Shown here piece by piece: positions 3,282-18,838 of a DNA stretch of 32,000 nucleotides (position 1 is its first letter; each line of letters starts with the position of its first letter). The stretch spans positions 868,472 through 900,471 of the forward strand of contig MKSO01000001.1 of assembly GCA_001897305.1 (NCBI GenBank), written 5' to 3'. The position numbers and the translations under genes are program-made. The notes beneath the pieces were generated by a model. That model was not told the DNA's origin, ran no database searches, and was given only the letters and a program-made list of their open reading frames with translations. Source of the stretch: Candidatus Saccharimonadota bacterium. GTDB taxonomy: Bacteria > Patescibacteriota > Saccharimonadia > Saccharimonadales > Saccharimonadaceae.

Positions 3282-3718
3282 AAAGTTACCCTCTGCTTTG
3301 TATCAAAGCTGTATTTGTTATTGTCGTATTTAACAATTACCTCGCTTCCCTGTTTTATCGAACCATCAATGATGTTTTTTGCTAGTGCATTCAATTTGCG
3401 ATTTTGTATGACGCGTTTGAGCGGGCGAGCGCCAAATGCCAGGTCGTAACCTTCTGTTGCTAGCGCTTTTTTTGTGGAGTCGGCAAATTCCAGCCTAATG
3501 TTCTTTGATGCTTCAATGTGGCGAGCGAGGGCCGATAGCTGCACATCGACAATCTGTTGCATATCGTCCTGCTTGATGCGATCGAATATCACGATGTCGT
3601 CGATACGGTTCAAAAACTCAGGGTATAGCGAATATACATCATCATCGAGAGATACAATTGCATTGCCTTCGGCAATTATCGCGAGTCTGTAGTTACCCCA
3701 TTGAATCAATCTAATCAT
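3275..3718 (-). pseudogene. ClpA/ClpB C-terminal (D2 small domain) fragment, 147 aa; a remnant or a stand-alone domain protein
   Basis: 'YPEFLNRIDDIVIFDRI..DDMQQIV' and 'GYD..FGARPLKRVIQ' match the last ~130 aa of ClpB-type AAA+ chaperones. Walker A/B and the whole of NBD1/NBD2 are absent. Confidence 0.6.
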
Positions 3719-3846
3719 CTAACTCCATTATACCACCATCTTTGATCGAGGGGCGGGGCCGCCTATAGATCGGCACTTCAGGAAAATTGCCCCGCCTACG
3801 CTCTCGATATATGGCGAACACCCGTCAGATCTAACCCCTAGAAATG

Positions 3847-4272
3847 CTACTTCTTTTTTGATGCGATAGTAATTTTCTTTGGTTCAGGCAGTGGTGCGAG
3901 CGGAATACTGACCTTCAAAACGCCATCATCCAGGTGCGCTTCGATCTTGTCGGTATCAGCCTGCTTTGGCAGTGCAATTCGTCGATAGAAACTACTTGAG
4001 CTTTCACGCACCACGTACTGCTTACCCTTATCTTCCTCTTTTTCGTGACGTTCGGCACTAATCACGAGTGTACCGTTCTCCACTTCGATATTGACATCTT
4101 TCTGCTCAAAGTTAGGCAGATGCGCCTCAACCACAAGGTTATTATCTTTAGTAAAGACATCAGTCGTCGGAATGTTAACGCCTTTTAGGGGCGACATCCA
4201 GTCATCACCAAAGAATTGTTTTTGTAATGCAGAAAGTTCCGCAAAGGGATCCCACTTTACAAGATTGCTCAT
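3847..4272 (-). CDS. Hsp20/alpha-crystallin family small heat-shock protein
   Basis: 141 aa with alpha-crystallin core 'VVEAHLPNFEQKDVNIEVENGTLVISAER' and 'FYRRIALP...DGVLKVSIP'. AAAGGAG RBS; CIRCE operator upstream. Confidence 0.9.
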   Translation of the reverse strand: MSNLVKWDPFAELSALQKQFFGDDWMSPLKGVNIPTTDVFTKDNNLVVEAHLPNFEQKDVNIEVENGTLVISAERHEKEEDKGKQYVVRESSSSFYRRIALPKQADTDKIEAHLDDGVLKVSIPLAPLPEPKKITIASKKK

Positions 4273-4334
4273 AATTTTCTCCTTTCATCATTGCATTAAT
4301 GGTTTCCTGGAGAAGCATAGAAGCTTCTGAATTT

Positions 4335-4363
4335 AGTATAGAAAATTAGCACTTACATGTCAA
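4335..4363 (-). promoter_or_regulatory. Sigma-70-type promoter of the hsp20 gene
   Basis: The minus strand reads TTGACA (4363-4358), 17 nt, TATACT (4340-4335), about 60 nt upstream of the ATG at 4272. Confidence 0.6.
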
Positions 4364-4372
4364 GAGTGCTAA
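4346..4372 (-). promoter_or_regulatory. CIRCE element (HrcA operator)
   Basis: The plus strand reads TTAGCACTT-ACATGTCAA-GAGTGCTAA against the consensus TTAGCACTC-N9-GAGTGCTAA (1 mismatch). It overlaps the -35 box and spacer of the hsp20 promoter. Confidence 0.85.
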
Positions 4373-4399
4373 TTCAGATGATTTAGTTGTTATCAAAAT

Positions 4400-4476
4400 A
4401 CCCAGTAGCGTGAATGCTTACTGGGTACACTTTAAGATATGCGCTCTTGGCTCAACTTCGCGGTCTTGAACTTAAT
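4400..4476 (-). repeat. Junction repeat copy A1 (terminator-like hairpin + tRNA-3'-end-like 25-mer)
   Basis: Stem ACCCAGTA/TACTGGGT (4400-4407 / 4419-4426) with an 11-nt loop. TGGCTCAACTTCGCGGTCTTGAACT starts at 4448 and abuts the stop codon of the 4477-4995 gene. Confidence 0.75.
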
Positions 4477-4995
4477 TCACAAATTTTCAACGATAGCATC
4501 TGCTGCCTTATAGGGAGATAGGGCGGATGTGTCAATTTTAAGCGACTTTACAAAAGGAATAGAATAGATATCCATATCCTCTGTGATAGTTTTCATAATC
4601 TCTGGGTCTGTAAGCTTTTTATATCTCTTACGTGATTCATTACCAACGCGAGCAATTAAATCATCCCTATTAGCACTTAATTCAACAAAGAATATCTCTC
4701 CTTTATTGTCCTCAACCGTCTTTATGAATTCGCGGACATTATCGTCGTCGTCCGAACCCTCGTATACGTATGTAAATATAAGATCCGTGTCGTTCTTTGA
4801 GCAATAATCTAAAACATCAAATCGTATACGATCTACCAAGGCATAATTTTCTCTCAGTTTATCTTTATAAATATCCTTTACCAGGTCACGAGATAGATGG
4901 TTATGAAACAGGGGGATGCCAGTACGCTCAGCTAATTTCTCGGCTACCGTAAGCTTACCAGAGGCAGGCGGGCCATATATAAATATCAGTTTCAT
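4477..4995 (-). CDS. P-loop NTPase / small-molecule or nucleotide kinase-like protein (AAA_33-like)
   Basis: 172 aa with the N-terminal Walker A-like 'IYGPPASGKLTVAEKLA'. Size and layout are typical of small kinases. Confidence 0.6.
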   Translation of the reverse strand: MKLIFIYGPPASGKLTVAEKLAERTGIPLFHNHLSRDLVKDIYKDKLRENYALVDRIRFDVLDYCSKNDTDLIFTYVYEGSDDDDNVREFIKTVEDNKGEIFFVELSANRDDLIARVGNESRKRYKKLTDPEIMKTITEDMDIYSIPFVKSLKIDTSALSPYKAADAIVENL

Positions 4996-5244
4996 AATGA
5001 TAGCATATCATACATTCCGGTCTTGAACTTTAACTCATAGTTTCAGGGAAAGCACACAGGTCTAGAACCAAATCTAAAGAGGTGTCTATAAAAATCAGCT
5101 AGCTTCTTAAATCAACCGCTCAGCAAAAGACGCTCCCACTTAAATGGCCAGCACTTTTAACAGCGGTAAATTAAAGACCAGTCAGAAAGACTGGTCTCGA
5201 ACTATTCGGGTGTCTAGTTTGGCTCAGCAGGCCGGTCACGGACC
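4996..5244 (-). repeat. 249-bp spacer R1 with four GGTCNNGAAC-type motifs; includes junction repeat B1 (5175-5244)
   Basis: GGTCTTGAAC 5019-5028, GGTCTAGAAC 5059-5068, hairpin AGACCAGTC/GACTGGTCT (5175-5183 / 5189-5197), GGTCTCGAAC 5193-5202, TGGCTCAGCAGGCCGGTCACGGACC 5220-5244. Same length and same motif order as 6382-6630. Confidence 0.7.
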
Positions 5245-5559
5245 TTAAATAGACGCAGTTATATCACGAGAGCTCACGACCCTTTTCTTGACCGATCCAA
5301 CATATAGCCGATAAGCTGGTCTGTCTTCCTTCTTGTAATTAATGAGGTTACCTAAGATCCTGTTGCATACTGTACAAGTTAGTTCACTTCCATTCGGTCT
5401 ACTGTCAATAAAACGGTCTGTATACATCCGCTTTAAGACTCCCGGTCCATCTTTTTGATAAAACGTTATATGAGCATTACAGCCTTCACAGGTAATATCC
5501 AGGACCCGTGAGCGGCCGCCGCGCGACTTTTGATACTTATCAGTCTTAAACTTGTACAT
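5245..5559 (-). CDS. Zn-ribbon protein, function unknown (104 aa)
   Basis: Two CxxC pairs ('CEGC', 'CTVC'). The stop abuts repeat B1, and an extended -10 box lies 6 nt upstream of the ATG. Confidence 0.55.
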   Translation of the reverse strand: MYKFKTDKYQKSRGGRSRVLDITCEGCNAHITFYQKDGPGVLKRMYTDRFIDSRPNGSELTCTVCNRILGNLINYKKEDRPAYRLYVGSVKKRVVSSRDITASI

Positions 5560-5576
5560 ACTCTAACTATAGCAAA

Positions 5577-5646
5577 ATCCAGTAGCGTGAATGCTTACTG
5601 GATAACCTGTAAAATATATGCTCTTGGCTCAGCTTGCCGGTCTTGA
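5577..5646 (-). repeat. Junction repeat copy A2
   Basis: Stem ATCCAGTA/TACTGGAT (5577-5584 / 5596-5603) with the same loop as A1 and one compensatory base-pair change. TGGCTCAGCTTGCCGGTCTTGA (5625-5646) abuts the stop of the EEP gene. Confidence 0.75.
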
Positions 5647-6381
5647 TTATTTAACTTCGAAATCGAGCACCAACCCCTGGTGGTCGGATGCTACAACTTC
5701 TGAGGCATAGAAATCATTCACCGCGACCTTGTCATTCACAAAGATAAAGTCGCAGGGCTCGCTTTTATGCGTCAGGTCGGTACGTGTCGTTTGTAAACCG
5801 TACTCTTTCGTCAGATTACGGAAATCTTTGTTCAGAATCTCTATCGATTCGCTATCCGGGAGAAGATTGAAGTCGCCCGTAATAATCACCGGGCCATCGA
5901 GTTGCCTTGCGTAATCAGCTATCTGTTGACACGCCTTCATGGTGAAATCATTGCCGTTCTTATGACCTGGAACATGATAGCCGTGGTGATTGATAATATG
6001 AATCTGTCGTCCATCTTGGTCCTTAATGGTAACGTGCTGAAAATTCCGTACATTGTAGTCATCATTTTCAAGCGACATGCTTGGATTGTATTCGAGGTTT
6101 GTGAAATAAGTCTGCTTATCCTCAAGCGCAAGATTACTCACAATCGCATTACCAAACTCAGGTTTGCTTGTCATCAGTTGAATTGCGTAGACCGGCGAGT
6201 GGTATCTATGATGAAAACGTAGATTATCCGCAAGTTCAGTTAAAGTGGGGAAGAAACCTAAGTCGGCAACAGACTCAAATACCTCTTGTAACGCGATTAT
6301 GTCCGGAGCCTCTTTCATCACCATATCTTCAATACGAGTCGCAAGGCGAATTGTCCACGCATTCAATTGTAGTAATCTCAT
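5647..6381 (-). CDS. Endonuclease/exonuclease/phosphatase (EEP) family protein
   Basis: 244 aa with 'DIIALQEV', 'GNAIVS', 'ITGDFN' and 'SDHQGL', the EEP catalytic motif set. Confidence 0.8.
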   Translation of the reverse strand: MRLLQLNAWTIRLATRIEDMVMKEAPDIIALQEVFESVADLGFFPTLTELADNLRFHHRYHSPVYAIQLMTSKPEFGNAIVSNLALEDKQTYFTNLEYNPSMSLENDDYNVRNFQHVTIKDQDGRQIHIINHHGYHVPGHKNGNDFTMKACQQIADYARQLDGPVIITGDFNLLPDSESIEILNKDFRNLTKEYGLQTTRTDLTHKSEPCDFIFVNDKVAVNDFYASEVVASDHQGLVLDFEVK

Positions 6382-6630
6382 GTTATGAGTATAGCAGGGT
6401 TGCGGTCTCGAACATTATCGCAAATTTTAGATAGGGGCATACCGGTCTAGAACTATTTTTCCAGAGGTCGCTATGAGTTCCTAACTGCCATCATGTATTT
6501 AGTAGTTTAGATAAAATACCTTGATCTGGGTAGCTGACGCCTTTATCAGAGGTAAAGCAAAGACCAGCCACAAGGACTGGTCTCGCACTATTTGGGTGTC
6601 TAGTCTGGCTCCGCTTACAGGTCACGAACT
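6382..6630 (-). repeat. 249-bp spacer R2, paralogue of R1; includes junction repeat B2 (6561-6630)
   Basis: GGTCTCGAAC 6404-6413, GGTCTAGAAC 6444-6453, hairpin AGACCAG../..CTGGTCT (6561-6583), GGTCTCGCAC 6579-6588, TGGCTCCGCTTACAGGTCACGAACT 6606-6630. Confidence 0.7.
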
Positions 6631-6710
6631 CTTTAACAGGGGTAGAACGCTACAAATCGGACACGGCGTGTATAGAATTAGACTGCGGCAACAATAAGCC
6701 GCAAGGAGGT

Positions 6711-7169
6711 ATGGTTATGAGCGAAAACGAGCATTTAAAGCGCGAATTTACGGATGAAGAGCGCCGTAGGTTAGTCGACTACTTTAACTTACTAATTGAG
6801 ATAGATCAACGAGAAAAAGCACGATATGCCAAACTCAAAGATTTCCCGAAAGGATTTGCTATGGACGGCGAAGGTCGAGAGTGTGGACTATGTTTCAGGC
6901 CTGTATATGATATTGCTGGCTGGTTCGATAAATGGGGCTTTAAATGCTCTAATTGCCAGGATGCAGTGAACAAGCGAAAAATACCAGGATCTTTGTGTAG
7001 CGATTATCGACACGAGAAGTCTATTCCCGATACGATGCTTGCTTCAAAGCTTAATATAAGCGTGCGAACGATTCGCAAGCAGATTCATGAAGGAAAGATA
7101 ATTGGGCGAAGAATTCCGAATGGGCCATACATGATTCTACGGAAGGACAATCCTAATCTTCAGCGTTAA
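6711..7169 (+). CDS. Zn-ribbon + C-terminal excisionase/MerR-type HTH DNA-binding protein
   Basis: AAGGAGG RBS. CxxC-x18-CxxC ('CGLC...CSNC'). C-terminal 'LNISVRTIRKQIHEGKIIGRRIPNGPYMI' resembles excisionase-family HTH_17. Confidence 0.6.
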   Translation: MVMSENEHLKREFTDEERRRLVDYFNLLIEIDQREKARYAKLKDFPKGFAMDGEGRECGLCFRPVYDIAGWFDKWGFKCSNCQDAVNKRKIPGSLCSDYRHEKSIPDTMLASKLNISVRTIRKQIHEGKIIGRRIPNGPYMILRKDNPNLQR

Positions 7170-7869
7170 ATATGCGTTCAAATTCTTCGAGCTCACCTTT
7201 AAGCCATTTTTGATACTTTTCATCAAAAATCAAATCAATTCTTTCTTTTATTTCTGTATTTACCGACGAAGCTCCCTTGTCCACAATTTCTTTTACATTG
7301 GACCAGTCTGGCAGTTTGAAGTTAAATATATCATCGAGAGCTTCATTAATGAGCTGTAGTGTCAAAAAATCGACCTTATAACCACCGTTTTCATATCCAT
7401 AACGTGCAGTGACAAAGATATTATCGGAGGACTTAATAACCTCTGACCATTTACCCGGCTTTAATCCATTGTCCACAAGATGCTTCTCTATATAGTTTCT
7501 GTATCTTGGATCAAGTTTGCTCAAAAGAGCTTTCATCCCATGACCTCTTTCGAGTTTGCCTGTGCTCCCTAGTAGAACTGCTTTTAGGAGCAGCTCGTTT
7601 GACAGAGCTAGCTGCACAACCAGTGCCTGAGGAATAGAATAAACAAATTTCCAATCATCTACTGGAATCGGGTAGCCCCCTGGAACTGATACCTTTTTTG
7701 ATAGCGCTTTTGATTTTTCATATACGTCTCTAAAAGCTACGGCATAAGCATAAATATCATTTGGAGTGATGGTGTTGCTCGTGTGATTAATGTTAAGAAC
7801 ACCATAGGCAGGAAGTTTTTTGAAACGGTATCCCTGTTTGTTGTTTGTGTAGTCTTTTGATTTAGCCAT
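7153..7869 (-). CDS. HEPN-like helical protein (238 aa), last gene of the MTase/helicase operon
   Basis: 'ELLLKAVLLGSTGKLERGHGMKALLSKL' followed by 'FVTARYGYE' resembles the HEPN helix pattern (A..E.aLKA.L....tH.L..L ... RY). Start set at ATG 7869 behind GGAGAGGG; the track start at 7884 is a GTG. Confidence 0.5.
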   Translation of the reverse strand: MAKSKDYTNNKQGYRFKKLPAYGVLNINHTSNTITPNDIYAYAVAFRDVYEKSKALSKKVSVPGGYPIPVDDWKFVYSIPQALVVQLALSNELLLKAVLLGSTGKLERGHGMKALLSKLDPRYRNYIEKHLVDNGLKPGKWSEVIKSSDNIFVTARYGYENGGYKVDFLTLQLINEALDDIFNFKLPDWSNVKEIVDKGASSVNTEIKERIDLIFDEKYQKWLKGELEEFERIFNAED

Positions 7870-7945
7870 TACGACCCTCTCCACCAGTTTCTATTACGCC
7901 ATGACCCTTTGTTGTGTAGTCGGAGTAAGAGTAGCGAATGCCCAT

Positions 7946-10459
7946 TTAAATCACCTCGCTTAAGATAACCTCGTCAATTTCATCGCGCGTAAGAGTAGTG
8001 TCAAAGCCACCGATCTTTTCATCACCAGACAAGCTGCGACCGCCAGCGTAAATCAAGCTTGAATCTTCAAACCTCTTAAACATAAAGATCGCTTGGTTAA
8101 GTTCATTCTGATTGAATACACCGATCTCGCACATACGATCGAAGTCACGCACTGACAAACCGGTAACTTTCGTGAACAATTCGGGCTCTAGGTTTCGAAT
8201 GACATCAATCAAGGTCTCCTCACGATAATCAGTAAGATACATGAAAACTGGGATACGAGTTATAAACTTCAATAACTTCTCGCGCAGCTGGCGCTTGAAC
8301 CCTTTATTCTCTTTTTCTTCAGCATCTTCTTTCTTTTTCTCTTCTTTCGTAGGCTCGTCGCCAGTTTCGGCACGCTCCTTCTTTTTCTCGTTCAAAGACT
8401 TCTCACTATTGATAGTCTTGGTGATATCTTGCCGTAAATTACGGAAATCCTCGATTTTCTCTAACGCCGCGAGAACATCAGGAGCATTCAATACTTTCTC
8501 AAGTACAATCGTCGTGACATCTACGAGCCGTGCCGACTGCCAGCGCTTCGCGAGCATCGTACTGGCCGTACCGTAGGTTGATATATCAAGAATTGCCGTA
8601 GCATCTAGTTTCGTCATCGATACGCCGTCATAACACAGGACAGGCAAGAACTCGATAAACTCCTCAAGTCGCTTTTCGGTAGTCCGGTTATCGCTCACAC
8701 CACCAAGTTCATTGCTGTAATTTGCCATGAGTTTCAAAGCGCGGCTCGGCGCAAAGTCCAATAGATAGCAAGTAGGCTTTATGATCTCTTTTTCGTTTGG
8801 ATTCTCTGCATTCGTGATTGACCAAGGGCTTTGCGCACGAAACGCGGTCTGAAAATAAGTCTCCGGACTGTCCGTATTTCTAAGGAAGAATACGCCGCTC
8901 CAAGGCTTGACCGTAACACCAGTAGTAAGCTTGCCACACGAAAGAGTAATCGTCCTTGTCTTGAATGGATCTCCTATTTTATCCAGCACTGGGTCGAGTG
9001 CCTCTTTGCCAATTCCGGCATCTTTACCGGCCGCATTGATAATTTCATACTCGCCAAAGAACGGATCATTATCGAGAAGCCGCTTCATTGCTTTACAGCT
9101 TGAGACACGCGGCAGGAACCAAAAGGTATGCTTAAGTGTAGATAGAAGCCGAGCGTCCTCAAAGGGTAGTGCTGGTTTTTGGTGGTCCATCTTATTCTCT
9201 ATAGCGACATCAAGGTCCATGCCGCGAAGAATATTCAAAAACTTCTGAACGTCGTTTTCACGCTCAAAAACATATTCACCTTCATCATTTTTCTTAGCAC
9301 TAAAAAACTTATTGAGATCAAACTCATTAAATTCACCCTGTTTGGCGATTTCTCGCAAACTATCTGGCATCTGATATGTCATCATGACAATCTGCGGCAG
9401 TTCAGCATACGGATTATCCTCATCTCTGCCTTGCCAGTTCTTTTTTTCACGCTGCTCGTCTGCGTAAGTCCAGTTGAATATTTGGTCTTCGCTAAACTCA
9501 CCACCAGCCAAGGCTCGGAACGGAGTACCCGATAGGTAAAGATAGGAACCGATCTTAAACGGTAGTATTTCCTCGATTTGGCCTTCTTCTAGGTCTGTGA
9601 GCGGATCTTTTTCATCTTTATCTTCTGAGGTAAGCTCTTTCGCACTATCTCGCCAGGCACCAAAGTGGTATTCATCAATTACTAGGCAGTCCCAATCTTC
9701 CTGACGCATGCGCTTGTGACGTTCTTTCAGGGCACCCGACTCTTTGTCTTTGCCCATGACATCTTGGAAGCTGGCAAACCAAACTACAGGCTTTTCTTCA
9801 TCTATGTTTTCCCAGCCCTGCTTGCCACCAATAAACTGCCATCCCTCAAAATCAACATGACCGTCTAAGTCTTCGCGCCATTGCTTCTCGGTAGCCGGCT
9901 TGTAGGTGAGTACCAATATGCGTTTCCACCCCATTTCTTTTGCAAGCTGGTACGAGGTGAAGGTTTTTCCGAATCGCATTTTCGCATTCCACAAAAAGTG
10001 CGGCGCGCGACCTTCGTGTGTTTTTGGATACTTAGAAAAATAAAGAGATGTCTTCTCTACCGCATTTTTTTGCTCAGGACGCATCGGAAAGGTGCCGAGA
10101 CGATTGCGATCGGTACGTATGCCAGTTTTCATCTCTAGAATTGCAGCCTTTACATCTTCAACGCTACAGTCAAACCACTCCGTAGCAAGTCGGCGAATAC
10201 CGCGGTTTAGGAGTATCTTATGAATCGCATGATCGCGGAAATATGCACCATCATTTGTAATTGCTTCAGTAAAATATTCAAGCTTATACTGTTTGTTCGG
10301 TGTATTGACTAGCCCTTCCTCAATGCGAGCAACCACAGCGTCAACATCCCGGTCGGATTTTGTTCGACGTGACGTGTCGCCGACTTTAACGCCAGGTTGA
10401 TTCGGCACGGAGTATACATAGATTTGAGGCTTTTTTCGGTAATCAAGAAGTTCGGCCAT
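7946..10459 (-). CDS. T5orf172 (GIY-YIG-like) domain fused to an SF2 (Res/DEAD-like) helicase; putative restriction/translocase subunit
   Basis: N-terminus 'IYVYSV..GVKVGDTSRRT...HKIL...TEWF' (T5orf172 pattern). Helicase motifs 'RFGKTFT' (I), 'VIDEYH' (II), 'LSGTPF' (III), 'QTAFRAQS' (VI). K/E-rich linker near the C-terminus. Confidence 0.75.
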   Translation of the reverse strand: MAELLDYRKKPQIYVYSVPNQPGVKVGDTSRRTKSDRDVDAVVARIEEGLVNTPNKQYKLEYFTEAITNDGAYFRDHAIHKILLNRGIRRLATEWFDCSVEDVKAAILEMKTGIRTDRNRLGTFPMRPEQKNAVEKTSLYFSKYPKTHEGRAPHFLWNAKMRFGKTFTSYQLAKEMGWKRILVLTYKPATEKQWREDLDGHVDFEGWQFIGGKQGWENIDEEKPVVWFASFQDVMGKDKESGALKERHKRMRQEDWDCLVIDEYHFGAWRDSAKELTSEDKDEKDPLTDLEEGQIEEILPFKIGSYLYLSGTPFRALAGGEFSEDQIFNWTYADEQREKKNWQGRDEDNPYAELPQIVMMTYQMPDSLREIAKQGEFNEFDLNKFFSAKKNDEGEYVFERENDVQKFLNILRGMDLDVAIENKMDHQKPALPFEDARLLSTLKHTFWFLPRVSSCKAMKRLLDNDPFFGEYEIINAAGKDAGIGKEALDPVLDKIGDPFKTRTITLSCGKLTTGVTVKPWSGVFFLRNTDSPETYFQTAFRAQSPWSITNAENPNEKEIIKPTCYLLDFAPSRALKLMANYSNELGGVSDNRTTEKRLEEFIEFLPVLCYDGVSMTKLDATAILDISTYGTASTMLAKRWQSARLVDVTTIVLEKVLNAPDVLAALEKIEDFRNLRQDITKTINSEKSLNEKKKERAETGDEPTKEEKKKEDAEEKENKGFKRQLREKLLKFITRIPVFMYLTDYREETLIDVIRNLEPELFTKVTGLSVRDFDRMCEIGVFNQNELNQAIFMFKRFEDSSLIYAGGRSLSGDEKIGGFDTTLTRDEIDEVILSEVI

Positions 10460-10460
10460 A

Positions 10461-11984
10461 TTACTTCATCTCCGCAATAACGGACTCAATAAACTTTTGT
10501 TCTGCCTGTGTTATTTCGTAACGTTCATATAACTTTTCGTCTGTCCACGTCTGGTCCATCGGAAGGTTCGGTACAAATCCGTAAACTCTAGCCGTAGCAT
10601 CATGTGTGACTTTTTTGAGAGATATCAAGAACCTTACAAATCTCGTCTGCAGATATTTTTTTAAGTTCTCAGCCTGCTCCTTTGAGTGAAGTTGTCCAGC
10701 ACCTATTACAACATACGTTTCCGTACAGCATGTTCCCGGCTCGCCAATTATAACGTTTAGATTATCATCGGGTGACTCTGTACCAATATTGTTAGCTTTT
10801 GCGGTGAATATTTTCCAGGAATTGATCCATGAAGAGTTAACTTGTACCCGCTCACGCCTAATGTAGCCTGTCTTTTTATTTGCATAAATCTTGACCTTGT
10901 CTGGATTATTTATTTGATCATAATCCGCAAAATTAGTTGCGAGACCGAAAGGCTTGCGAGATGACACTATTTTATCTAACGTCTCCTCGTTCCTATCCTT
11001 AACTTTTTCATAAATTGGTACTGCTTGGTTGTAACGAATAAATACATCGAATTCATTCAGTGGGCGCTTCGTAACAGGAAGCTCCTCTTCTCCAATTAAA
11101 GTATGGACTTCACAGTCACCTGAATATTCAGCTTCCCATACGAAATACATCACTCCGCCTTTTATCTCTACGCCAGGGAAGCAGTCACTCGCGCGCGGAT
11201 AGTCGTACATAACCTTGATCCGCTTATCAGCCAGCATCTCAGCCCTAAACTTATCTAAACCTTTTCCTCCGGAGAACCAGCGCGACGGTATAATAAATGA
11301 CATATATCTCGGCTGAAGTCTTTTTGCCTGCTGAACAAATAGCTGGTAAATAGGCGCGGCACTCGATCCGTGACCGCCATCCTTCAGTTGATACGGCGGG
11401 TTTCCTACGATAACATCAAACTTCATATTGCTCGCCTCCTCTGCTGTTAAATGAATAAATTTATATGCGTGACGTTCTTGGTCTTCACCGCGACCACCGA
11501 GCTGTGCGTCGGTTTCTTTATTGCCACAGTATTTACAATTTCCGTTTACGTATGTGTGTGTGCGGTTTTCGTAATCAATGTTGCCGTTTGGGCTCTGGAA
11601 GTGCGCGACGGATTCTTCGCTACTTGCGTTCTTGCTTGTATATAAGCTTCTTCGAGCCATCAAAGCCGTAAGCTCAGTAATACCAATGCCGTATATCATA
11701 TTTTGGAAGATATGCTGGCGTCGCTCTTCCTCGTCAGGAAATTTATCCTTCAGGCCGATCATTAAACGATAAGTAATTTGGCGTAAAAAGACACCAGTTT
11801 TGGTTGCAGGATCGAGCCACTTTAGGCTTGGATTGCTCCAGACCTCTTCGGGTAGCGCGTCAAGCACCTTATCTACCATATTCGGCGGCGTGAAGACTTC
11901 GTCACTCGATAGATTGGCAATACAGTCAAGAATATCTGGTCGGTGATCAACTTCATTTAGAATACGTGTGACAATATTAGACAT
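10461..11984 (-). CDS. Gamma-class N6-adenine DNA methyltransferase (Eco57I/TaqI-like) with C-terminal target-recognition-like region
   Basis: Motif X 'DEVFTPP', motif I variant 'LDPATKTGVFL', motif IV 'VIVGNPPYQ'. Separated from the downstream helicase gene by 1 nt. Confidence 0.8.
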   Translation of the reverse strand: MSNIVTRILNEVDHRPDILDCIANLSSDEVFTPPNMVDKVLDALPEEVWSNPSLKWLDPATKTGVFLRQITYRLMIGLKDKFPDEEERRQHIFQNMIYGIGITELTALMARRSLYTSKNASSEESVAHFQSPNGNIDYENRTHTYVNGNCKYCGNKETDAQLGGRGEDQERHAYKFIHLTAEEASNMKFDVIVGNPPYQLKDGGHGSSAAPIYQLFVQQAKRLQPRYMSFIIPSRWFSGGKGLDKFRAEMLADKRIKVMYDYPRASDCFPGVEIKGGVMYFVWEAEYSGDCEVHTLIGEEELPVTKRPLNEFDVFIRYNQAVPIYEKVKDRNEETLDKIVSSRKPFGLATNFADYDQINNPDKVKIYANKKTGYIRRERVQVNSSWINSWKIFTAKANNIGTESPDDNLNVIIGEPGTCCTETYVVIGAGQLHSKEQAENLKKYLQTRFVRFLISLKKVTHDATARVYGFVPNLPMDQTWTDEKLYERYEITQAEQKFIESVIAEMK

Positions 11985-12675
11985 TTCCAGACTCCTTATA
12001 AAATAGTGTAGCTTGGCCGCTCATTAAATCGATATTACCAAATGGCTTTGGGTGATATTTTGCTAAATTGATAGGCTCCATCGCTGATAACTTAACCAGT
12101 GGAAATTCTTCCGAAACTGAATCATCACCATTTTCCATGCTTGTTAGTGCATAGACCTTGCGCTTAACGCTGGCTTTTGTAATGTATTCGGCGCCATGAA
12201 AGCCGTATTCAACAAAAAAAACTTTATCTTTACCATTCAACATATCACCGAGCTGAATATTTGTATCGAGGATGTTTTTTACCGCAAGTAAAAACGCTGC
12301 CGATGACTTCTTTGGGGCGAACATAAAGATTTCGTCCATAATGCGTTTTTTGCATTCAGCGATATTATCGTCAGCGATATCGACACCATAAATAGTAGAT
12401 ATCATCTTAACGATTGCGTACTCACGTTTGTCAGCCGGGCGATAGGTAGGTGTTTGCTTGATCCGCATGAGTCGTTGTCGAACAATTTCTACCAAAAAAT
12501 TACCATCCCCACATGCGGGTTCAAGAAACTTCCAAAATATATTGTCGGTTGCTTGGGTGAGAGCCAGAATATTTTTTACTTCACGCTCCCGAGTAAAAAC
12601 TTCGCCCTGATCACGTACACGATTTTTAGATTTGATGATTTTCTCTTTTGATAGCGAAGACATATTACACAACAT
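11977..12675 (-). CDS. Methyltransferase-like SAM-binding protein lacking the catalytic (D/N)PPY motif (232 aa)
   Basis: 'GEVFT' (motif X), 'FLEPACGDGNFL' (canonical motif I), 'IYGVDI', 'IQLGDML'; no NPPY follows. 8-nt overlap (ATGTCTAA) with the next gene. Alternative start ATG 12663, 10 nt after a TATAAT box. Confidence 0.65.
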   Translation of the reverse strand: MLCNMSSLSKEKIIKSKNRVRDQGEVFTREREVKNILALTQATDNIFWKFLEPACGDGNFLVEIVRQRLMRIKQTPTYRPADKREYAIVKMISTIYGVDIADDNIAECKKRIMDEIFMFAPKKSSAAFLLAVKNILDTNIQLGDMLNGKDKVFFVEYGFHGAEYITKASVKRKVYALTSMENGDDSVSEEFPLVKLSAMEPINLAKYHPKPFGNIDLMSGQATLFYKESGNV

Positions 12676-12712
12676 TATACCTTAATTACCTCAAGAAATC
12701 ACTCTCCATAGT

Positions 12713-12752
12713 CGAGAACGTACGAGAATTGTCAAGAATTGACGAGAATTGT
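12713..12752. promoter_or_regulatory. Four phased 10-bp direct repeats (putative operator/iteron) upstream of the MTase operon
   Basis: cgagaacgta|cgagaattgt|caagaattga|cgagaattgt with exact 10-bp periodicity. A fifth CAAGAA core sits at 12692-12697. The array lies 38-77 bp upstream of ATG 12675. Confidence 0.6.
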
Positions 12753-12768
12753 AAATGATTTTTTAATA

Positions 12769-12798
12769 TTGACTGTTCACGTTGCGTAATGCTATCCT
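12769..12798 (+). promoter_or_regulatory. Candidate promoter for the ParB-MTase transcript
   Basis: TTGACT (12769-12774), 18 nt, TGcTATCCT (extended -10, 12790-12798). This would give a ~190-nt leader before ATG 12992. Confidence 0.35.
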
Positions 12799-12991
12799 AA
12801 ATATAGCCACATGGCTAGCACCTTACCGGATCACAAGTCCCAATTCATTCAAGGCTATATACGGCATAGAAAGAGTTGATCGAAAGGAGGCGAACCTTTT
12901 ATCTCAACCGAGGTAAATTGTTTGTGCATCCATTTCTATCAACTAAATCTATGCTCTTTTTATTTGGAGAGCATAAGAAAGGAAGCGTCTT

Positions 12992-14362
12992 ATGACCTCC
13001 TCAACCTCTCAGCTGCACGTGCAGCACATCAACATCAACGAACTGAAAGCCAGCGAGTTCAACCCGCGCACTTGGTCGGATCACCAGCTGGCGAAGCTGC
13101 GTGAAAGCATCAAAAAGTTTGGTGTAGTTGACCCACTCATCGTCAACGCTCACCCATCGCGCAAAAATATTGTGATCGGTGGCAATATGCGGCTCGAGGT
13201 ACTCCGGGAGATCGGTCACACCGAAGTGCCCGTCGTTGAGCTACACCTAACCGAGCGGAAAGAGCGTGAACTCAACCTACGTCTTAATAAAACCGGAGGC
13301 GACTGGGATTACGCTCTACTAAAAGAGTTCGACGAAGATCTACTAGCCGACGTCGGCTTTGAATCCGAAGAGCTCGATGACGTTTTCGCTATCGAGGATA
13401 CCGAAGAAAAGGCTTCATTCGACCTGAAAAAGGAGCTGAAGAAGCTTGATATCAAGAAAATCACCGTTCAAAAAGGCGATGTTTACCAACTAGGCGAATC
13501 ACGGTTAATGTGCGGTGATTCCACCGTCGAAGCTGATTTCGACAAACTGATGGACGGCGAAAAAGCTGATATGTGCATGACCGACGAGCCGTATATCCTG
13601 GACTACCTGCACGCCAAGCGCGGCGGTAAACCTGTCAAAGGCTTTGGTGCTAAGCGTGACCGCATTTACCTCGAAACTGAAACGTTACCAGATAACTTCA
13701 TCGAGCTCTGGATGGCTAATGTCGCCAAACATGCCAAGCCGGACTTCAGCATCATCTCGTATGAGAACTGGAAGAACCTGCGTGAAATGTGGAACGCGAT
13801 GGAGAAGTACTGGAAAGTTAAAAACATGATCGTCTGGCACTTGCCGAACCGCCACCAAGGTTTTTCATCGAAATACAAATTCTTCTCGAAGCACGATATT
13901 GCCGTTGTGGGTGGCTCTGGCGACGTACCATATAACACCGATGACGAAGAGGGCCCGCTACAGGAAATGTACGAAACCGCTCTGTTCGCCATCTCCGGTA
14001 AGCCACAGTGGGAGGGTTACGAAAAAGGCAAGAAATACATGCCGACCGACTTCATCGAGTTCAATGCCGATGACCTGAAAGGCTCCGGCCAGGGCGTCGT
14101 GTTCGGCACGAAGCCACTTGATATCCTTATTCCCTACATCAAGGTCCTGACGCGGCGTGGTGACCTCGTAGTGGAACCGTTCGGCGGGTCAGGGAGTACG
14201 CTCATCGCATCGATCAAGCTTAATCGCCGCTGCTACATCATGGAAAAAGTGCCAACCTACGCCGAAGTGATCTTGCGGCGCTGGGAAAAAGAAACTGGCT
14301 TGAAGCGCAAGCTGATTGTACGAGGTAGCGATGACGAAGTTCAGTCGAGCGTACAGGAATAA
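12992..14362 (+). CDS. ParB-like nuclease domain fused to a beta-class N4/N6 DNA methyltransferase
   Basis: N-terminus 'FNPRTW', 'VIGGNMRLEVL' (ParB/Srx fold). Motif IV position reads 'CMTDEPY'. C-terminal motif I 'VVEPFGGSGST'. AAAGGAAG RBS. Confidence 0.8.
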   Translation: MTSSTSQLHVQHININELKASEFNPRTWSDHQLAKLRESIKKFGVVDPLIVNAHPSRKNIVIGGNMRLEVLREIGHTEVPVVELHLTERKERELNLRLNKTGGDWDYALLKEFDEDLLADVGFESEELDDVFAIEDTEEKASFDLKKELKKLDIKKITVQKGDVYQLGESRLMCGDSTVEADFDKLMDGEKADMCMTDEPYILDYLHAKRGGKPVKGFGAKRDRIYLETETLPDNFIELWMANVAKHAKPDFSIISYENWKNLREMWNAMEKYWKVKNMIVWHLPNRHQGFSSKYKFFSKHDIAVVGGSGDVPYNTDDEEGPLQEMYETALFAISGKPQWEGYEKGKKYMPTDFIEFNADDLKGSGQGVVFGTKPLDILIPYIKVLTRRGDLVVEPFGGSGSTLIASIKLNRRCYIMEKVPTYAEVILRRWEKETGLKRKLIVRGSDDEVQSSVQE

Positions 14363-14942
14363 GATCCTCGGTCTCCTCCGGGAGAATCCAAACCTTCAGC
14401 GTGCCTGCAAAAAAGCAGGCATCGCTCGAAGTACGCTCTATCGCTGGATGGAAGACGATATCGAGTTTCGTGATGACATCCGCGATGCTCAAGAAATCGG
14501 CCAAGATACCATGAATGATTACGTCGAGGCTAAGCTTATGGAAAACATCCAAAACAACACGCAGCGCTCGATTGAGTTCTACCTGCGCCATAACAGCCCG
14601 AAGTACGCCTCTACTCGTGTCGAAACCGAGTACTTCGATAAACGTGGTGCTGGGCGAATTACCCACTTGCCTGTTGGCATCGACCCGATGTATTACAGCG
14701 GCGAAATCGACATACTGGACAAGCTCGCCGAACGAATGGAACTTCGTCGTGCTATGAATGAGGTAAAGCTGAAGACCGAAGGTTACGACCCTAACAGGCC
14801 AATTCGCCCCGAAAAACTAGGTAAGATGTTCGCCGAAGAGTTCTATCAGGCGTTTCCTCACGCCAAGGATATAATCGACGATCAACTATACGAATACGAT
14901 AAGAAAAAGCAGCAAGAAGATTGCGAGCAGGATGATCGCTAG
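14331..14942 (+). CDS. Phage terminase-small-subunit-like HTH protein
   Basis: 'ACKKAGIARSTLYRWMEDDIEFRDDI' followed by 'IEFYLRHNSPKY' matches the phage TerS / phBC6A51-type homeodomain pattern. ATG 14331 is preferred over the track TTG at 14316. Confidence 0.55.
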   Translation: MTKFSRAYRNKILGLLRENPNLQRACKKAGIARSTLYRWMEDDIEFRDDIRDAQEIGQDTMNDYVEAKLMENIQNNTQRSIEFYLRHNSPKYASTRVETEYFDKRGAGRITHLPVGIDPMYYSGEIDILDKLAERMELRRAMNEVKLKTEGYDPNRPIRPEKLGKMFAEEFYQAFPHAKDIIDDQLYEYDKKKQQEDCEQDDR

Positions 14943-14993
14943 ACTTATACCCCGCTTGGCGGTATGTTGTGTTGCTGAAGAAAGGAATTACAG

Positions 14994-15299
14994 ATGAAAA
15001 TGACAGATGATGCGATGAAGATGCGAAATGGAACCAGTTTCCGGAGCTATATCAATGCCCAGTATGACAAACTGGTTGAACTATTCGGTGAGCCGTTTAC
15101 CGATACCAATAATCATAAGACGGATGCTGAATGGATCGTCGCTACTCCATACGGCCCAGCCACGATCTACAATTACAAGAATGGCTTCTCATATTTAGGA
15201 CTTAGCGGATTAAAGCTCGAAGAGATGAATGAGTGGCACGTTGGTGGCAGAAATAAGCAAAGCTACGAGTGGATCGTAGAAAAAATCACTACTGGTTGA
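14994..15299 (+). CDS. Hypothetical small protein (101 aa), phage-like
   Basis: AAAGGAA RBS-like sequence and an intact ORF. 'TIYNYK' and 'WHVGG' resemble motifs I recall from phage hypothetical proteins, but no family can be assigned. Confidence 0.5.
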   Translation: MKMTDDAMKMRNGTSFRSYINAQYDKLVELFGEPFTDTNNHKTDAEWIVATPYGPATIYNYKNGFSYLGLSGLKLEEMNEWHVGGRNKQSYEWIVEKITTG

Positions 15300-16209
15300 T
15301 ATCGTAACTCTGTTGGATGAGATTCATCACATAATCTAAATCAGTAGCGGACGTGACTTCAACTTCATAGTCACCATTGCCCCAATGGCCTATGTGCACA
15401 GGTGACTCAACGTCACGAGCAAGTCCCCGCGGGTCATCTAGCGTGCCGGTCTTCATGTTGATATAAAGTTTTAGCTTAGACTTCTTGAAGACGACATCAA
15501 CAAAGTTTCGTGTCGTTTTGTAGGCTACGTACATCTTCTTTGGATCCTCGATAATTTCCGTATCGATAGCCAAGATCCGCTCTTTCAGTGATGCAAATAG
15601 CGCTTTGGTCTCTTCATTTGCCATTGCTAAGTGATACTCAAGTGTGAACGTTTCCTGCAGCTTCTCTGGCTTGCCAGAGTCAGTGGTGAACTTCGGTACG
15701 TCTTGCAGCTTCACCTTTTGATAGTTTTCAGTATCCAGTGTTAGCAAACCATCTTCATATAGCTTGTACCGATACAGTTCGATGTTAATAGGCAATAAGT
15801 CGGCGGTGTCTGTGTCGAACTTGTTATAACTCTCGGCAACGCAAATCACTCGCGGAGCGGCCCATTGAATAGCTATCGTAATATTCTTTTCATTGCAAAG
15901 CTTCTCAAAACTATCTTTATGATCAAGCAGCCAACGAAGATATGACAGGCCCTGGTTGATTACGTTCTCGTTATGCCCCTTTTTGTATTCGATAATGCAC
16001 GGATTACCTTCGTCATCGATACCAAGCGTATCCATACGCCCACCAAAACTCGTTGAATATTCGCTCGCTAAAAAGTGAACGCCAAGCAGTTCATGAAGAC
16101 TAGCTTCGAAGATACGCTGAACATCGCGTTCAAGGATTCGTTTGCCGTTTAAGTTTGTGATTGGCTTCAGTCGAGAGGCGTTATTGTTAGATACTTTAAA
16201 TAAACTCAT
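15289..16209 (-). CDS. NucS/DUF91-like PD-(D/E)XK nuclease-fold protein with DUF5655-like C-terminal domain
   Basis: 'GGRMDTLGIDDEGNPCIIEYKKG' gives D...E-x-K. The C-terminal 'YVAYKTTRNFVDVVF...KLYI...GHWGNGDYEV' resembles DUF5655. Confidence 0.6.
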   Translation of the reverse strand: MSLFKVSNNNASRLKPITNLNGKRILERDVQRIFEASLHELLGVHFLASEYSTSFGGRMDTLGIDDEGNPCIIEYKKGHNENVINQGLSYLRWLLDHKDSFEKLCNEKNITIAIQWAAPRVICVAESYNKFDTDTADLLPINIELYRYKLYEDGLLTLDTENYQKVKLQDVPKFTTDSGKPEKLQETFTLEYHLAMANEETKALFASLKERILAIDTEIIEDPKKMYVAYKTTRNFVDVVFKKSKLKLYINMKTGTLDDPRGLARDVESPVHIGHWGNGDYEVEVTSATDLDYVMNLIQQSYDINQ

Positions 16210-16260
16210 AATTTCATATATTATCTCACTTTTCGCTAGACTTTACTACTGTTAGGCGGT

Positions 16261-17565
16261 ATGTTGGTGCTTGCAATGGAAACACAAGCACCTCAACTAA
16301 AATATTGCCTCTACGCACGAAAATCGTCTGAATCGGACGAACGTCAGGCTATGAGCATTGATTCACAGCTGGCCGAGATGCGAGCCCTCGCAGTAAACGA
16401 AGGATTAAACGTCGTCTGCGAGCTACAGGAGAGCCACTCAGCAAAAGACTCAGGCAAACGCCCGGTATATAACCAAATGCTCGCTGGAATCGCGAACGAG
16501 GAATATAATGCCGTGCTTACTTGGGCGCCGGATCGGCTCAGTCGAAATGCTGGCGACTTAGGGTCAGTAGTCGACTTGATGGATCAGCACAAGCTACTTC
16601 ACATACGTACCTATTCACAAACATTTACCAATAGCCCGAATGAGAAATTCCTTCTCATGATCCTCTGCTCACAAGCAAAGCTTGAGAATGACAACAAAAG
16701 CATCAATGTAAAGCGTGGCATCCGAACTAAGTGCGAAATGGGGTGGCGACCTGGCACCGCTCCACTCGGCTATATAAATAGATCATTCGGCGGCGTCACT
16801 GACATCATCCCTGACCCTGACCGTTCCGATATCATCACCGAGATGTTTCATAAAGCCGCTCAGGGCTGGAGCGGCAGGAGGCTAAAGGCCTGGCTTGATG
16901 AGCAAGGTATTACGACCAGAAGTGGACGAACCGTGCCAGTGAGTAGTGTCCTCGCGATGCTTATAAACCCCTTCTACTACGGTGAGTTCCAGTACCCCGA
17001 AGGTCCAGGAAATCCATGGTACAAAGGAGCGCATAAACCACTCATTTCCAAGGAGTTGTGGGATGAAGTACAGCAGACACGTGGAGTAAATAAAGGCGTG
17101 TGGGGATCGAAGCAGTTTGCCTTCCGCGGTCTACTAAAATGCGGTCGGTGCGGGGCTGAAGTAACGGCACAGGAAAAGATAAAGCTACTCAAGAAAAAAG
17201 GCGTGCATAAAAGGTTCGTCTACTATAACTGCACCCGCAAGATAGATCCGAACTGTAAAGAGAAATACATTAACGAAGACGTACTATGCGAGCTACTTGA
17301 ACCGCTAATCGAAAAACAGGTAAAAAAGATCCGCGTAACCCCTAAACTACAAGCAAAGATAGATCGACACTACGCCGTCGCACAAAATATCCTACATCAG
17401 TACGGAGTGGAACGGCCGCCAGCAACTCCGCTCGTCGAATACTCTAGATACGTACTGCGAAGCGGTAGCGAAACAGAAAAAACCGCCTTCGCCAATGGGA
17501 TCATGAATAAGATAGCCGTAAGGAATGGTGAATTAAAAATCACCCATGAACGGACCGATCCGTAG
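16261..17565 (+). CDS. Large serine recombinase (resolvase N-terminal + recombinase + Zn-ribbon domains)
   Basis: 'YCLYARKSSESDERQAMSIDSQ' (catalytic Ser region), 'DRLSRN', a recombinase-domain stretch, and 'CGRCGAEV...YYNCTRK' Zn ribbon. Confidence 0.85.
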   Translation: MLVLAMETQAPQLKYCLYARKSSESDERQAMSIDSQLAEMRALAVNEGLNVVCELQESHSAKDSGKRPVYNQMLAGIANEEYNAVLTWAPDRLSRNAGDLGSVVDLMDQHKLLHIRTYSQTFTNSPNEKFLLMILCSQAKLENDNKSINVKRGIRTKCEMGWRPGTAPLGYINRSFGGVTDIIPDPDRSDIITEMFHKAAQGWSGRRLKAWLDEQGITTRSGRTVPVSSVLAMLINPFYYGEFQYPEGPGNPWYKGAHKPLISKELWDEVQQTRGVNKGVWGSKQFAFRGLLKCGRCGAEVTAQEKIKLLKKKGVHKRFVYYNCTRKIDPNCKEKYINEDVLCELLEPLIEKQVKKIRVTPKLQAKIDRHYAVAQNILHQYGVERPPATPLVEYSRYVLRSGSETEKTAFANGIMNKIAVRNGELKITHERTDP

Positions 17566-17572
17566 CAGACGA

Positions 17573-18526
17573 CTAATTTGAGTCGATTCCGTAGAAGGAC
17601 TTCAGCTTCTTTGCGACACGCGGCGCCAGCTTTCGGGGTATAAACTTAAGCACATTATTAGCCTTATCAATTCTTGAAGGTGGAAGGTTATTGAACCCCG
17701 CGTCAATAAGTTTTTGCTCATAACCGAAAGGCATCGCGATCAATGTCTCAAAGGGTGTGCCAGCATCGTAACCACCAATACATCTAAATCCTATCACACC
17801 ATACCTCTTACGAACTATGAGAGTTACGTCGATCGGCGTCCCATGACCGAATGAGGCACTGCTCTTTATGACAGTAGATCTCTTATAATATGATCTATAG
17901 TGTTTTATCAGCGAACGGATCACGACATGCAGTGCAACCGCACGATTAATTAAATCATTTGTTCTTTGCAATTCGTATATTGTCGGGTATCCGGCATCAT
18001 CAGCAATAGTAACCCCCGACCTGCCAGTACTCTTAATTGCATAGTCACCATGTGCGATTGCATTTCTAAACCTTGCATCGAAAGCCGATTCGAAAGGTTG
18101 ATATACATTTTCAAAATCCGTTCCCCGCGCAATCGACTTGAGTCTATCGATTTTTTGCTCAACTTTTAGATTTGCAAACTTCTTATTTCTATGGTTTGCA
18201 ATTATGTAATCTTCGCCCTTCACCGTGTTAACTAGGTTAGCGATAATTTCATAGTGCTCAGAACTCTCAATTAGATGGAGGTAGGTCCACAAGTTGATGT
18301 TAAATCCCAATGATCCCCTGAATTTGCGCTGTTGCTTATAAATCTCTTCGAAAACATTCTGCGTATTCTCGAACGGGTCCCATCCATCATCACTCATCCC
18401 GCGCATCGCGAGTATCGTCATAATTACGTTAAATTCCGACACATCGAAGGCTTTCTTGAAAAGAGGTTCAAAAACCTCCATGTATTCCTCGACAAATTGA
18501 GAGTAGTTATTTGTTACCTGAGCCAT
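17573..18526 (-). CDS. HEPN-domain (Rx4H) protein, Abi-like
   Basis: 'FDARFRNAIAHGDYAI' contains the canonical RNxxxH HEPN motif in a helical context. ATG 18526 is preferred (the track start at 18550 is a TTG). An extended -10 box lies 7 nt upstream. Confidence 0.6.
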   Translation of the reverse strand: MAQVTNNYSQFVEEYMEVFEPLFKKAFDVSEFNVIMTILAMRGMSDDGWDPFENTQNVFEEIYKQQRKFRGSLGFNINLWTYLHLIESSEHYEIIANLVNTVKGEDYIIANHRNKKFANLKVEQKIDRLKSIARGTDFENVYQPFESAFDARFRNAIAHGDYAIKSTGRSGVTIADDAGYPTIYELQRTNDLINRAVALHVVIRSLIKHYRSYYKRSTVIKSSASFGHGTPIDVTLIVRKRYGVIGFRCIGGYDAGTPFETLIAMPFGYEQKLIDAGFNNLPPSRIDKANNVLKFIPRKLAPRVAKKLKSFYGIDSN

Positions 18527-18631
18527 ATAAAATATCTTATCACTGGTCAAGGAACTCGGTCAGTATTTCGGCTGTCCAGTCGCCCTAGGAGAAACCAGTC
18601 AATTTCAGGACTAAACATCAAGGGTGAACAC

Positions 18632-18655
18632 GAAAAAACCGCCCTTTCGGACGGT
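18632..18655 (-). terminator. Rho-independent terminator downstream of tRNA-Asn
   Basis: The minus strand reads ACCGTCC-GAAA-GGGCGGT (7-bp stem with one G-U, GAAA loop) followed by TTTTTT. Confidence 0.6.
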
Positions 18656-18763
18656 TCTATCGGTTTCTGTACCTTTTGATAACAATTGGTACTCTTGTCT
18701 GACTCAAGGGGTAAATCTGACTTTTGGTCAGGGAACCCGGTCTGGGTATTTACCTGCTGAGTC

Positions 18764-18838
18764 TGGCTCCGGCGGCTGGATTCGAACCAGCGACCTCGAA
18801 GTTAACAGCTTCTTGCGCTACCGCTGCGCCACGCCGGA
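18764..18838 (-). tRNA. tRNA-Asn (anticodon GTT), CCA encoded
   Basis: Reverse complement: TCCGGCG-TG-GCGC-AGCGGTA-GCGC-A-AGAAG-CTGTTAA-CTTCG-AGGTC-GCTGG-TTCGAAT-CCAGC-CGCCGGA-G-CCA. Full cloverleaf with 7-bp acceptor stem, canonical T-loop and anticodon GTT. Confidence 0.92.

Follow-up and report, generated by a model that had tools for sequence, protein, structure and literature searches.

Within a 32,000-nt window of contig MKSO01000001.1 from a Candidatus Saccharimonadota bacterium, we examined a minus-strand operon at 7946-12675 that very probably encodes a DrdVI-type restriction-modification (R-M) system composed of two methylase subunits, M1 and M2, and a nuclease-translocase subunit, R. 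Residue and nucleotide positions are given throughout for this window, and the proteins are named A232 (M1), M507 (M2), H837 (R), N238 and HTH152. An initial annotation of this DNA had reported four minus-strand open reading frames (ORFs) and a 27-codon 'bridge' ORF, all of which exist at the positions listed in Table 1, and every peptide motif that it quoted is found in the translations. Its coupling-type junctions can likewise be read from the sequence: the A232 stop codon overlaps the M507 start within GGAAATGTCTAAT (11977-11984), with AAGGAG upstream of that start; M507 and H837 meet at TAA-T-ATG (10457-10463); and the 27-codon ORF is flanked by TAAATG (7943-7948) and ATGGCTAA (7862-7869), with a Shine-Dalgarno-like GGAGAGG upstream of the N238 ATG.

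While the four-gene set had been put forward as an undescribed system, the trio formed by A232, M507 and H837 is a further DrdVI-type system, of a kind that is already catalogued in REBASE and has been little studied mechanistically. A plasmid protein search identified the same three genes, in the same order, on plasmid pDrdVI (15.5 kb) of Deinococcus wulumuqiensis NEB 479, where they encode a 212-aa 'DNA methyltransferase' (M1.DrdVI), a 539-aa Eco57I-domain methylase (M2.DrdVI) and an 851-aa helicase. Identity to these proteins is 34% over 154 aa for A232 (E 2e-26), 46% over the full length for M507 (E 2e-159) and 46% over 97% of H837, and no methylase gene besides M1 and M2 was found on pDrdVI. 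Co-expression of the orthologous M1 and M2 proteins results in N6-methyladenine (m6A) on one strand of a short asymmetric motif, namely GCAGCC for M1-2.DrdVI, which was cloned in E. coli and is listed in REBASE as type IIG (Fomenkov et al. 2019, PMC6430315), and GCACY for MaeIV of Methanococcus aeolicus, which has been placed with DrdVI in a 'split methylase/RM' family (PMC10113651). For GCAGCC, methylation is confined to one strand since the other has no adenine. The DrdVI-type R subunit has been described as a GIY-YIG-type nuclease fused to a translocase (PMC4996451), and we found no structure of this family in the literature. The PADLOC profile PDLC03626 ('REase_MTase_IIG', 1359 positions) matches both H837 (positions 173-808) and M507 (positions 853-1359, E 6e-68). 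An identical architecture is therefore on record for three of the genes, but not for the fourth. The broader view taken by the initial annotation is upheld, namely that this is a modification-linked defence module with a GIY-YIG-like (T5orf172) nuclease-superfamily 2 (SF2) translocase as its effector and an extra methyltransferase paralogue that binds S-adenosylmethionine (SAM).

M507, previously read as a methyltransferase, belongs to the Eco57I family (Pfam Eco57I, E 7e-35) and contains motif X (DEVFTPP), a family-specific variant of motif I, DPxxK(S/T)GVFL, and the catalytic NPPY at aa 194-197 (nt 11394-11405). Its C-terminal target recognition domain (TRD; ~aa 301-465, nt 10590-11084) is variable, being 35% identical across orthologues, whereas the catalytic parts are 52-60% identical. 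Across the M507 family, Lys replaces the first Gly of motif I, the acidic residue of motif II is missing at its usual place, and a conserved Cys/His insert (C...H...C..C) is located between motifs II and IV (~aa 128-153, window ~11526-11603). This family-wide insert looks like a zinc-binding element and accounts for spurious cytochrome c7 matches. The protein keeps a diverged copy of the N-terminal half of a methylase in addition to the separate M1. A PDB sequence search with M507 returned nothing useful, and the MmeI_Mtase score on this operon, 23.7 bits, falls under the 27-bit cut-off.

The reading of A232 as a protein with methyltransferase motifs X, I, II and III and without NPPY was borne out in 43 diverse relatives, across which these SAM-binding motifs are invariant or nearly so; the residues kept in the family are R19, E25/V26/T28, E52/P53/G56/G58/F60, Y96/G97/D99 and N139/G143. 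While a domain search with A232 itself gave weak methylase matches only, the family profile matches HsdM (3ufb, E 1.7e-4) and MmeI in the motif X/I region. The AlphaFold2 model (predicted local distance difference test score, pLDDT, 78.7) has a half-Rossmann fold, for which the top Foldseek matches are the methyltransferase domains of BrxX, BsaXI, MmeI, DrdV and LlaGI, all weak (best E 0.06). A232 is a derivative of an Eco57I-type gamma-class N6-adenine methyltransferase, namely of its N-terminal half, which binds SAM. Members of this family are almost all stand-alone proteins of 180-300 aa, with at least 1780 cluster representatives (50% clustering, E<=1e-10). A natural unsplit counterpart also exists in the 504-aa methyltransferase P0334, of which the N-terminal half is 42% identical to A232 and the C-terminal half carries NPPY and the TRD and can be aligned to residues 186-507 of M507; this arrangement fits the curators' term 'split methylase'. 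No H837-like gene was found beside the P0334 gene. The true start of A232 is probably the ATG at 12663 and not the ATG at 12675, as many close homologues are 228 aa long and begin with MSSLSKEK, and the 12675 ATG lies inside TATAATG.

H837 had been described as a T5orf172 module fused to an SF2 helicase, and Pfam supports both parts, with scores of 21.2 bits for T5orf172 (cut-off 20) and E 8e-7 for ResIII. The T5orf172 domain is matched by 14 of 15 members of the H837 family (best E 1e-9), and this domain is an active nuclease in Odn of phage ICP1 (PMC8263062). The motor motifs are GKT at 164-166, DEYH at 262-265, SGTP, and Q..FR.Q at 537-543, and they are followed by a K/E-rich linker and a conserved helical domain (~aa 640-837). 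Homologues form more than 8000 clusters that are 50-65% identical along the whole length and range over Saccharibacteria, Proteobacteria, Bacteroidota and archaea; invariant among them are the ATPase motifs and the candidate nuclease residues Y14, Y16, K25, R45, H80 and E94. Foldseek matches of the AlphaFold2 model are to Snf2/ISWI/RadD-type SF2 motors and, given the poor model (pLDDT 63.8), indicate an SF2 motor only. A PADLOC match of H837 to PD-Lambda-5_A is weak (E 1.9e-5) and was set aside because it covers only part of the C-terminal region.

Table 1. Features of the operon and of its surroundings in the 32,000-nt window.
Feature	Position	Strand	Basis or remark
A232, M1 subunit	11977..12675	-	SAM-binding motifs, homology to M1.DrdVI
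M507, M2 subunit, Eco57I-family gamma-class m6A methyltransferase	10461..11984	-	Pfam, PADLOC, DrdVI homology
H837, R subunit, T5orf172 nuclease and SF2 translocase	7946..10459	-	Pfam, DrdVI homology
T5orf172/GIY-YIG-superfamily nuclease of H837	aa 13-110, nt 10130-10423	-	Pfam
SF2 DExH translocase core of H837	~aa 124-600, nt 8660-10090	-	ResIII, motifs
27-codon 'bridge' ORF	7862..7945	-	Open by inspection only
N238, HEPN-like	7153..7869 (from ATG)	-	Pfam HEPN
HTH152, HTH_17-type, convergent to N238	6711..7169	+	Weak Pfam HTH_17 match
Divergent intergenic region, A232 to ParB-methylase gene	12676..12991		Sequence reading, repeat family
ParB N-terminal domain-N6_N4 DNA methylase fusion	12992-14362	+	PADLOC MTase_II PDLC03229, E 1e-53
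Sf6-type small-terminase-like helix-turn-helix (HTH) protein	14316-14942	+	ORF starts inside last 47 nt of ParB-methylase gene
306-aa DUF5655 protein	15289-16209	-	PADLOC candidate defence family PDC-S18, E 1e-95
Large serine recombinase	16261-17565	+	CcrB/XisF-like matches; tRNA-proximal island end
325-aa protein	17573-18550	-	tRNA-proximal island end
tRNA-Asn	18764-18838	-	Island boundary
Integrated island, ~12.2 kb	6589..18838		tRNA-Asn 3'-end repeats

The three genes travel together. Scanning one genome per species yielded at least 600 pattern matches, and 599 of the 600 listed encode an H837 relative; we fetched 80 H837-related loci and searched them by tblastn with the window proteins. 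In all 53 loci for which 3.2 kb or more of upstream DNA is available, homologues of M507 and A232 precede the H837 relative on the same strand, and the order A232, M507, H837 is kept in 58 of 58. These loci come from many bacterial phyla and archaea and are mostly chromosomal. The trio is also present on plasmids and in a human-gut Caudoviricetes phage, NatCom_35866 (PV036449.1, L103), which carries a complete M1-M2-R trio at 2652-7883 with a longer R subunit of 974 aa. No copy was found in the E. coli genome at the DNA level. In about 25 of the 80 loci (L013, L015, L023, L044, L045, L052, L054, L066, L074, L076, L079 and others), one to three unrelated genes sit between M2 and R, including DUF1016/YhcG, RhuM, AlbA_2/Schlafen, AAA_15/21 with DUF4276, Bro-N and transposases. 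Genes inserted in the operon are likewise seen inside Type I and Hma operons, and DUF1016 and RhuM belong to the families that Type I operons are reported to harbor (PMC9881135). Downstream neighbors of the trio include GmrSD, Mrr, Fic, HD and Piwi genes. The variable TRD, the inserted genes and the defence neighbors indicate that the locus behaves like an R-M system. The DrdVI-type family is thus very large, with more than 8000 clusters of R subunits and at least 599 species genomes of bacteria and archaea, in addition to plasmids and phages, although annotation pipelines call its parts 'hypothetical protein', 'DEAD/DEAH box helicase' or 'GIY-YIG nuclease'.

In the mechanism that we propose, M1 and M2 would together make up the modification enzyme, with M2 providing the catalytic NPPY and the variable C-terminal TRD, which would set the DNA motif, and M1 providing its strictly conserved SAM-binding motifs. 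Since H837 lacks a DNA-recognition module, it would have to be targeted by the M1-M2 complex, and we infer that it docks on this complex via its conserved C-terminal domain, that its DExH SF2 motor translocates on unmodified foreign DNA and that its N-terminal T5orf172/GIY-YIG nuclease cuts. Restriction, complex formation, ATP-driven translocation and the division of labor between M1 and M2 are thus predicted from the sequences, and the resulting enzyme would follow Type III/Type ISP logic built from different parts.

Several points weigh against this mechanism. M2 retains a motif X of its own and a motif I close to the canonical form, which makes M1 only a putative supplier of SAM binding; the H837 model is poor, as noted above, and neither H837 alone nor its family profile has a significant sequence match among PDB chains. 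For DrdVI-type R subunits, a literature search returned methylation data only, with no report of DNA cleavage or of phage or plasmid restriction. The published data on DrdVI and MaeIV, being limited to methylation, also fit a different reading, in which the locus is a relic or an epigenetic system whose methylase is active and whose R subunit no longer restricts, the methylase being in practice an orphan that serves gene regulation or the keeping of the mobile element. The nearest studied analogue, DnmA-YeeB-YeeC of B. subtilis, which has like building blocks, shows neither restriction nor protection against phages and has been read as a relic (PMC9973331), and the DrdVI-like copies in Bibersteinia are fragmented, decayed and inactive (PMC4996451). 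We nevertheless consider a relic or purely epigenetic role improbable at this locus. All three ORFs are full length and retain every residue that is invariant across phyla, nuclease and ATPase motifs included, and the strict three-gene linkage across hundreds of species and the 50-65% identity of R across domains of life both argue for selection on R. In addition, YeeAB homologues protect Vibrio crassostreae from phages (bioRxiv 10.1101/2021.05.05.442762).

With respect to the division of labor, M1 and M2 may form a truly composite methylase that binds SAM functionally through M1 alone; the degenerate N-terminal half of M2, together with its Cys/His insert, would then have been co-opted as the place where R docks. 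A putatively obligatory M1 with invariant SAM-binding motifs, the altered motifs I and II and Cys/His insert of M2, the unsplit P0334, the fused relatives described below and the hitch-hiker genes all provide testable hypotheses for the family.

Upstream of the operon, the divergent region between A232 and the ParB-methylase gene is the presumed operon promoter. It contains a TATAAT at 12674-12679 and a tandem 20-nt repeat at 12708-12747 (ATAGTCGAGAACGTACGAGA / ATTGTCAAGAATTGACGAGA), which may be an operator; a consensus promoter and terminator scan showed no enrichment over shuffled sequence.

At the other end of the operon, the description of N238 as HEPN-like holds, as its Pfam HEPN match (PF05168) lies marginally above threshold (23.4 bits, cut-off 22) and 17 of 18 relatives match the same profile at E<=0.01. 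The catalytic Rx4-6H motif is absent from the N238 family, in which no His follows a conserved Arg at 4-6 residues; the invariant residues are H110, R122 and R156 (ARYG). A profile search against the PDB detected no solved relative. The family is small, consisting of 36 clusters; these bear Saccharibacteria names, and NCBI labels the proteins 'HEPN domain-containing protein'.

The initial annotation had counted N238 as a fourth component, and a single undescribed four-component system, with the HEPN-like protein as a dedicated subunit such as an RNase effector linked to methylase and translocase, would account for the four co-oriented genes, their coupling-type junctions and the Shine-Dalgarno-like sequence before N238, HEPN domains being common in defence systems. 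However, co-occurrence of the four genes in other genomes was not found: the trio is present in 53 of 53 loci, but tblastn detected N238 in none of the 67 trio loci with at least 1 kb of downstream DNA. Even on contigs with helicases 95-96% identical to H837, the position of N238 is taken by GmrSD or an unrelated 139-aa gene, and more distant relatives have an unknown 314-aa gene (88% identical helicase) or a small T5orf172/MUG113 gene (86%) there. The absence of N238 from these loci and the different genes downstream of close relatives indicate that the unit consists of three genes, not four. Given also that N238 has 36 clusters against thousands for the trio, that its homologues adjoin Type I R-M or HNH genes instead, and that the trio is already catalogued as DrdVI-type, a dedicated fourth subunit is very unlikely.

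The 27-codon ORF, which occupies the 78-nt spacer between H837 and N238, is probably no gene. It has no family match in a domain search, and we estimate that about a quarter of random frames of this length would be open too. We found no second H837-N238 junction in which its conservation could be checked. It might derive from the DUF6994 gene found ahead of N238 at another locus, but the spacer shows only a weak similarity, limited to about its last 45 nt, to the region upstream of the N238 copy in metagenomic contig L091.

That copy, which is 97% identical to N238, has the DUF6994 gene before it and a Type I hsdR nearby; a 74% identical copy (L095) comes after Type I hsdM-hsdS, and copies with 49% identity are near an HNH gene and a recombinase. 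HTH152 is convergent to N238 and overlaps its 3' end by 17 nt, and L091 has the same pair with the same overlap, the HTH protein there being 84% identical to HTH152. Taken together, these arrangements indicate that N238 and HTH152 are a separate, portable module that abuts the operon by chance, N238 itself being restricted to Saccharibacteria. Anticodon nucleases of the PrrC/RloC type have a HEPN-type fold and are encoded by accessory genes on Type I R-M loci. N238 resembles them as a HEPN-type accessory gene riding on differing R-M operons, a likeness that is a lead only; it differs in having neither the Rx4-6H motif nor an ATPase domain. By this analogy, a PrrC-like link of N238 to R-M systems is possible. 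A stronger form of this idea, that N238 and HTH152 are a Saccharibacteria guard module on unrelated R-M operons (Type I twice, DrdVI-type here), appears unlikely to us. If it were true, N238 would be a PrrC-like backup or regulator that fires once the R-M complex has been neutralized, and the module would be a second defence layer common to R-M types in very small genomes.

The DrdVI-type operon is part of an integrated island. The 3' end of tRNA-Asn recurs in three degenerate copies, at 5203-5227, 6589-6613 and 18747-18771, whose similarity runs for some 40 nt and extends into the T-arm. They delimit the 12.2-kb island as well as an adjacent 1.4-kb segment, and the additional copy at 5203-5227 suggests tandem integrations at tRNA-Asn. 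In view of its small-terminase-like HTH protein, the island may be a satellite of a phage or derived from one. The ParB-methylase fusion, which has a weak match to mad2 of MADS and is divergent from the R-M operon, is a second, independent methylase, and the PDC-S18 protein is a second defence-type gene of the island. The 325-aa protein (17573-18550) matched nothing in Pfam, NCBIfam or PADLOC. That the trio serves as a weapon of the mobile element, methylating and so protecting its own DNA (anti-restriction) or attacking competitors, and not as host defence, fits its presence on plasmids, in a gut phage genome and in this integrative island, but is highly improbable, since R-M systems are normally found on mobile elements too, the 80 loci are for the most part chromosomal and set among defence genes, a sequence-specific methylase with a variable TRD plus a nuclease-translocase is an R-M design, and there is no sign of packaging or injection of the trio proteins. 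The locus can therefore be annotated as a DrdVI-type R-M system (M1, M2, R) in a tRNA-Asn defence island.

Comparison with known systems places this operon outside the classical R-M types, as the initial annotation had argued, and sets it apart from Type I, Type III and Type ISP in both layout and homology. Type I systems require HsdS, and no match to Methylase_S or to the HsdR/HsdM families was found in or beside the operon. Type III systems (EcoP15I, EcoP1I) resemble it in having separate Mod and Res subunits, a Res that combines an SF2 ATPase with a nuclease and depends on Mod for recognition, and asymmetric, hemimethylated sites. However, Mod is a beta-class enzyme with an internal TRD, whereas M507 has the gamma order (X, I, ... 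IV, C-terminal TRD); the Res nuclease is a C-terminal PD-(D/E)XK domain, whereas that of H837 is an N-terminal T5orf172 domain; and Type III systems lack a third, M1-like subunit. Consistent with this, M507 and H837 matched no MTase_III or Res profile among the PADLOC Type III profiles, the generic ResIII ATPase domain being the one Res-related match of H837.

The Type ISP enzymes LlaGI and LlaBIII share with the operon a nuclease, an SF2 motor, a gamma-class m6A methylase and a C-terminal TRD, as well as one-strand methylation of an asymmetric site. They are single polypeptides with an Mrr/PD-(D/E)XK nuclease and no M1, in contrast to the three genes and T5orf172 nuclease found here, and sequence similarity to them was not detectable in PDB searches, with a weak structural echo in the methylase domain only. 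DnmA(YeeA)-YeeB-YeeC is likewise a conserved cluster, in which a gamma-class methylase that has a TRD is encoded together with an SF2 helicase and a T5orf172/GIY-YIG protein, and the m6A made by DnmA is confined to a single strand of its asymmetric site (PMC2731913, PMC9973331). In that system, however, the methylase is a large MmeI-family protein without M1, and the helicase and T5orf172 protein (YeeB and YeeC, compared by description) come from separate genes, with a C-terminal T5orf172 domain in place of one fused N-terminally to the helicase. The Hma system (Snf2-nuclease, methylase, ATPase) was rejected, as the four proteins had no PADLOC Hma match and the Hma nuclease is of the PD-(D/E)XK type; their PADLOC matches are only to R-M, PD-Lambda-5_A and DndD profiles.

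Fused relatives on Enterococcus plasmids are closer. Their T5orf172, helicase and Eco57I-methyltransferase parts are homologous to H837 (34% over aa 10-645) and M507 (27% over nearly the full length), and they keep a separate upstream M1-like gene of 248 aa. They differ in that R and M2 form one 1445-aa polypeptide (nuclease, motor, methylase, TRD), in which no counterpart of the conserved C-terminal domain of H837 can be detected. This single chain has the domain order of Type ISP enzymes and is the form to which PADLOC PDLC03626 corresponds. The closest counterparts of the operon are DrdVI and MaeIV, in which three proteins are encoded in the same order by overlapping or abutting genes, as here, and with which, for DrdVI, each subunit shares the identity given above. 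Relative to DrdVI, the present system is located in a tRNA-Asn island, has a probable Saccharibacterium host and is abutted by an unrelated HEPN-like gene; its TRD has diverged from that of DrdVI, so its recognition motif is probably different.

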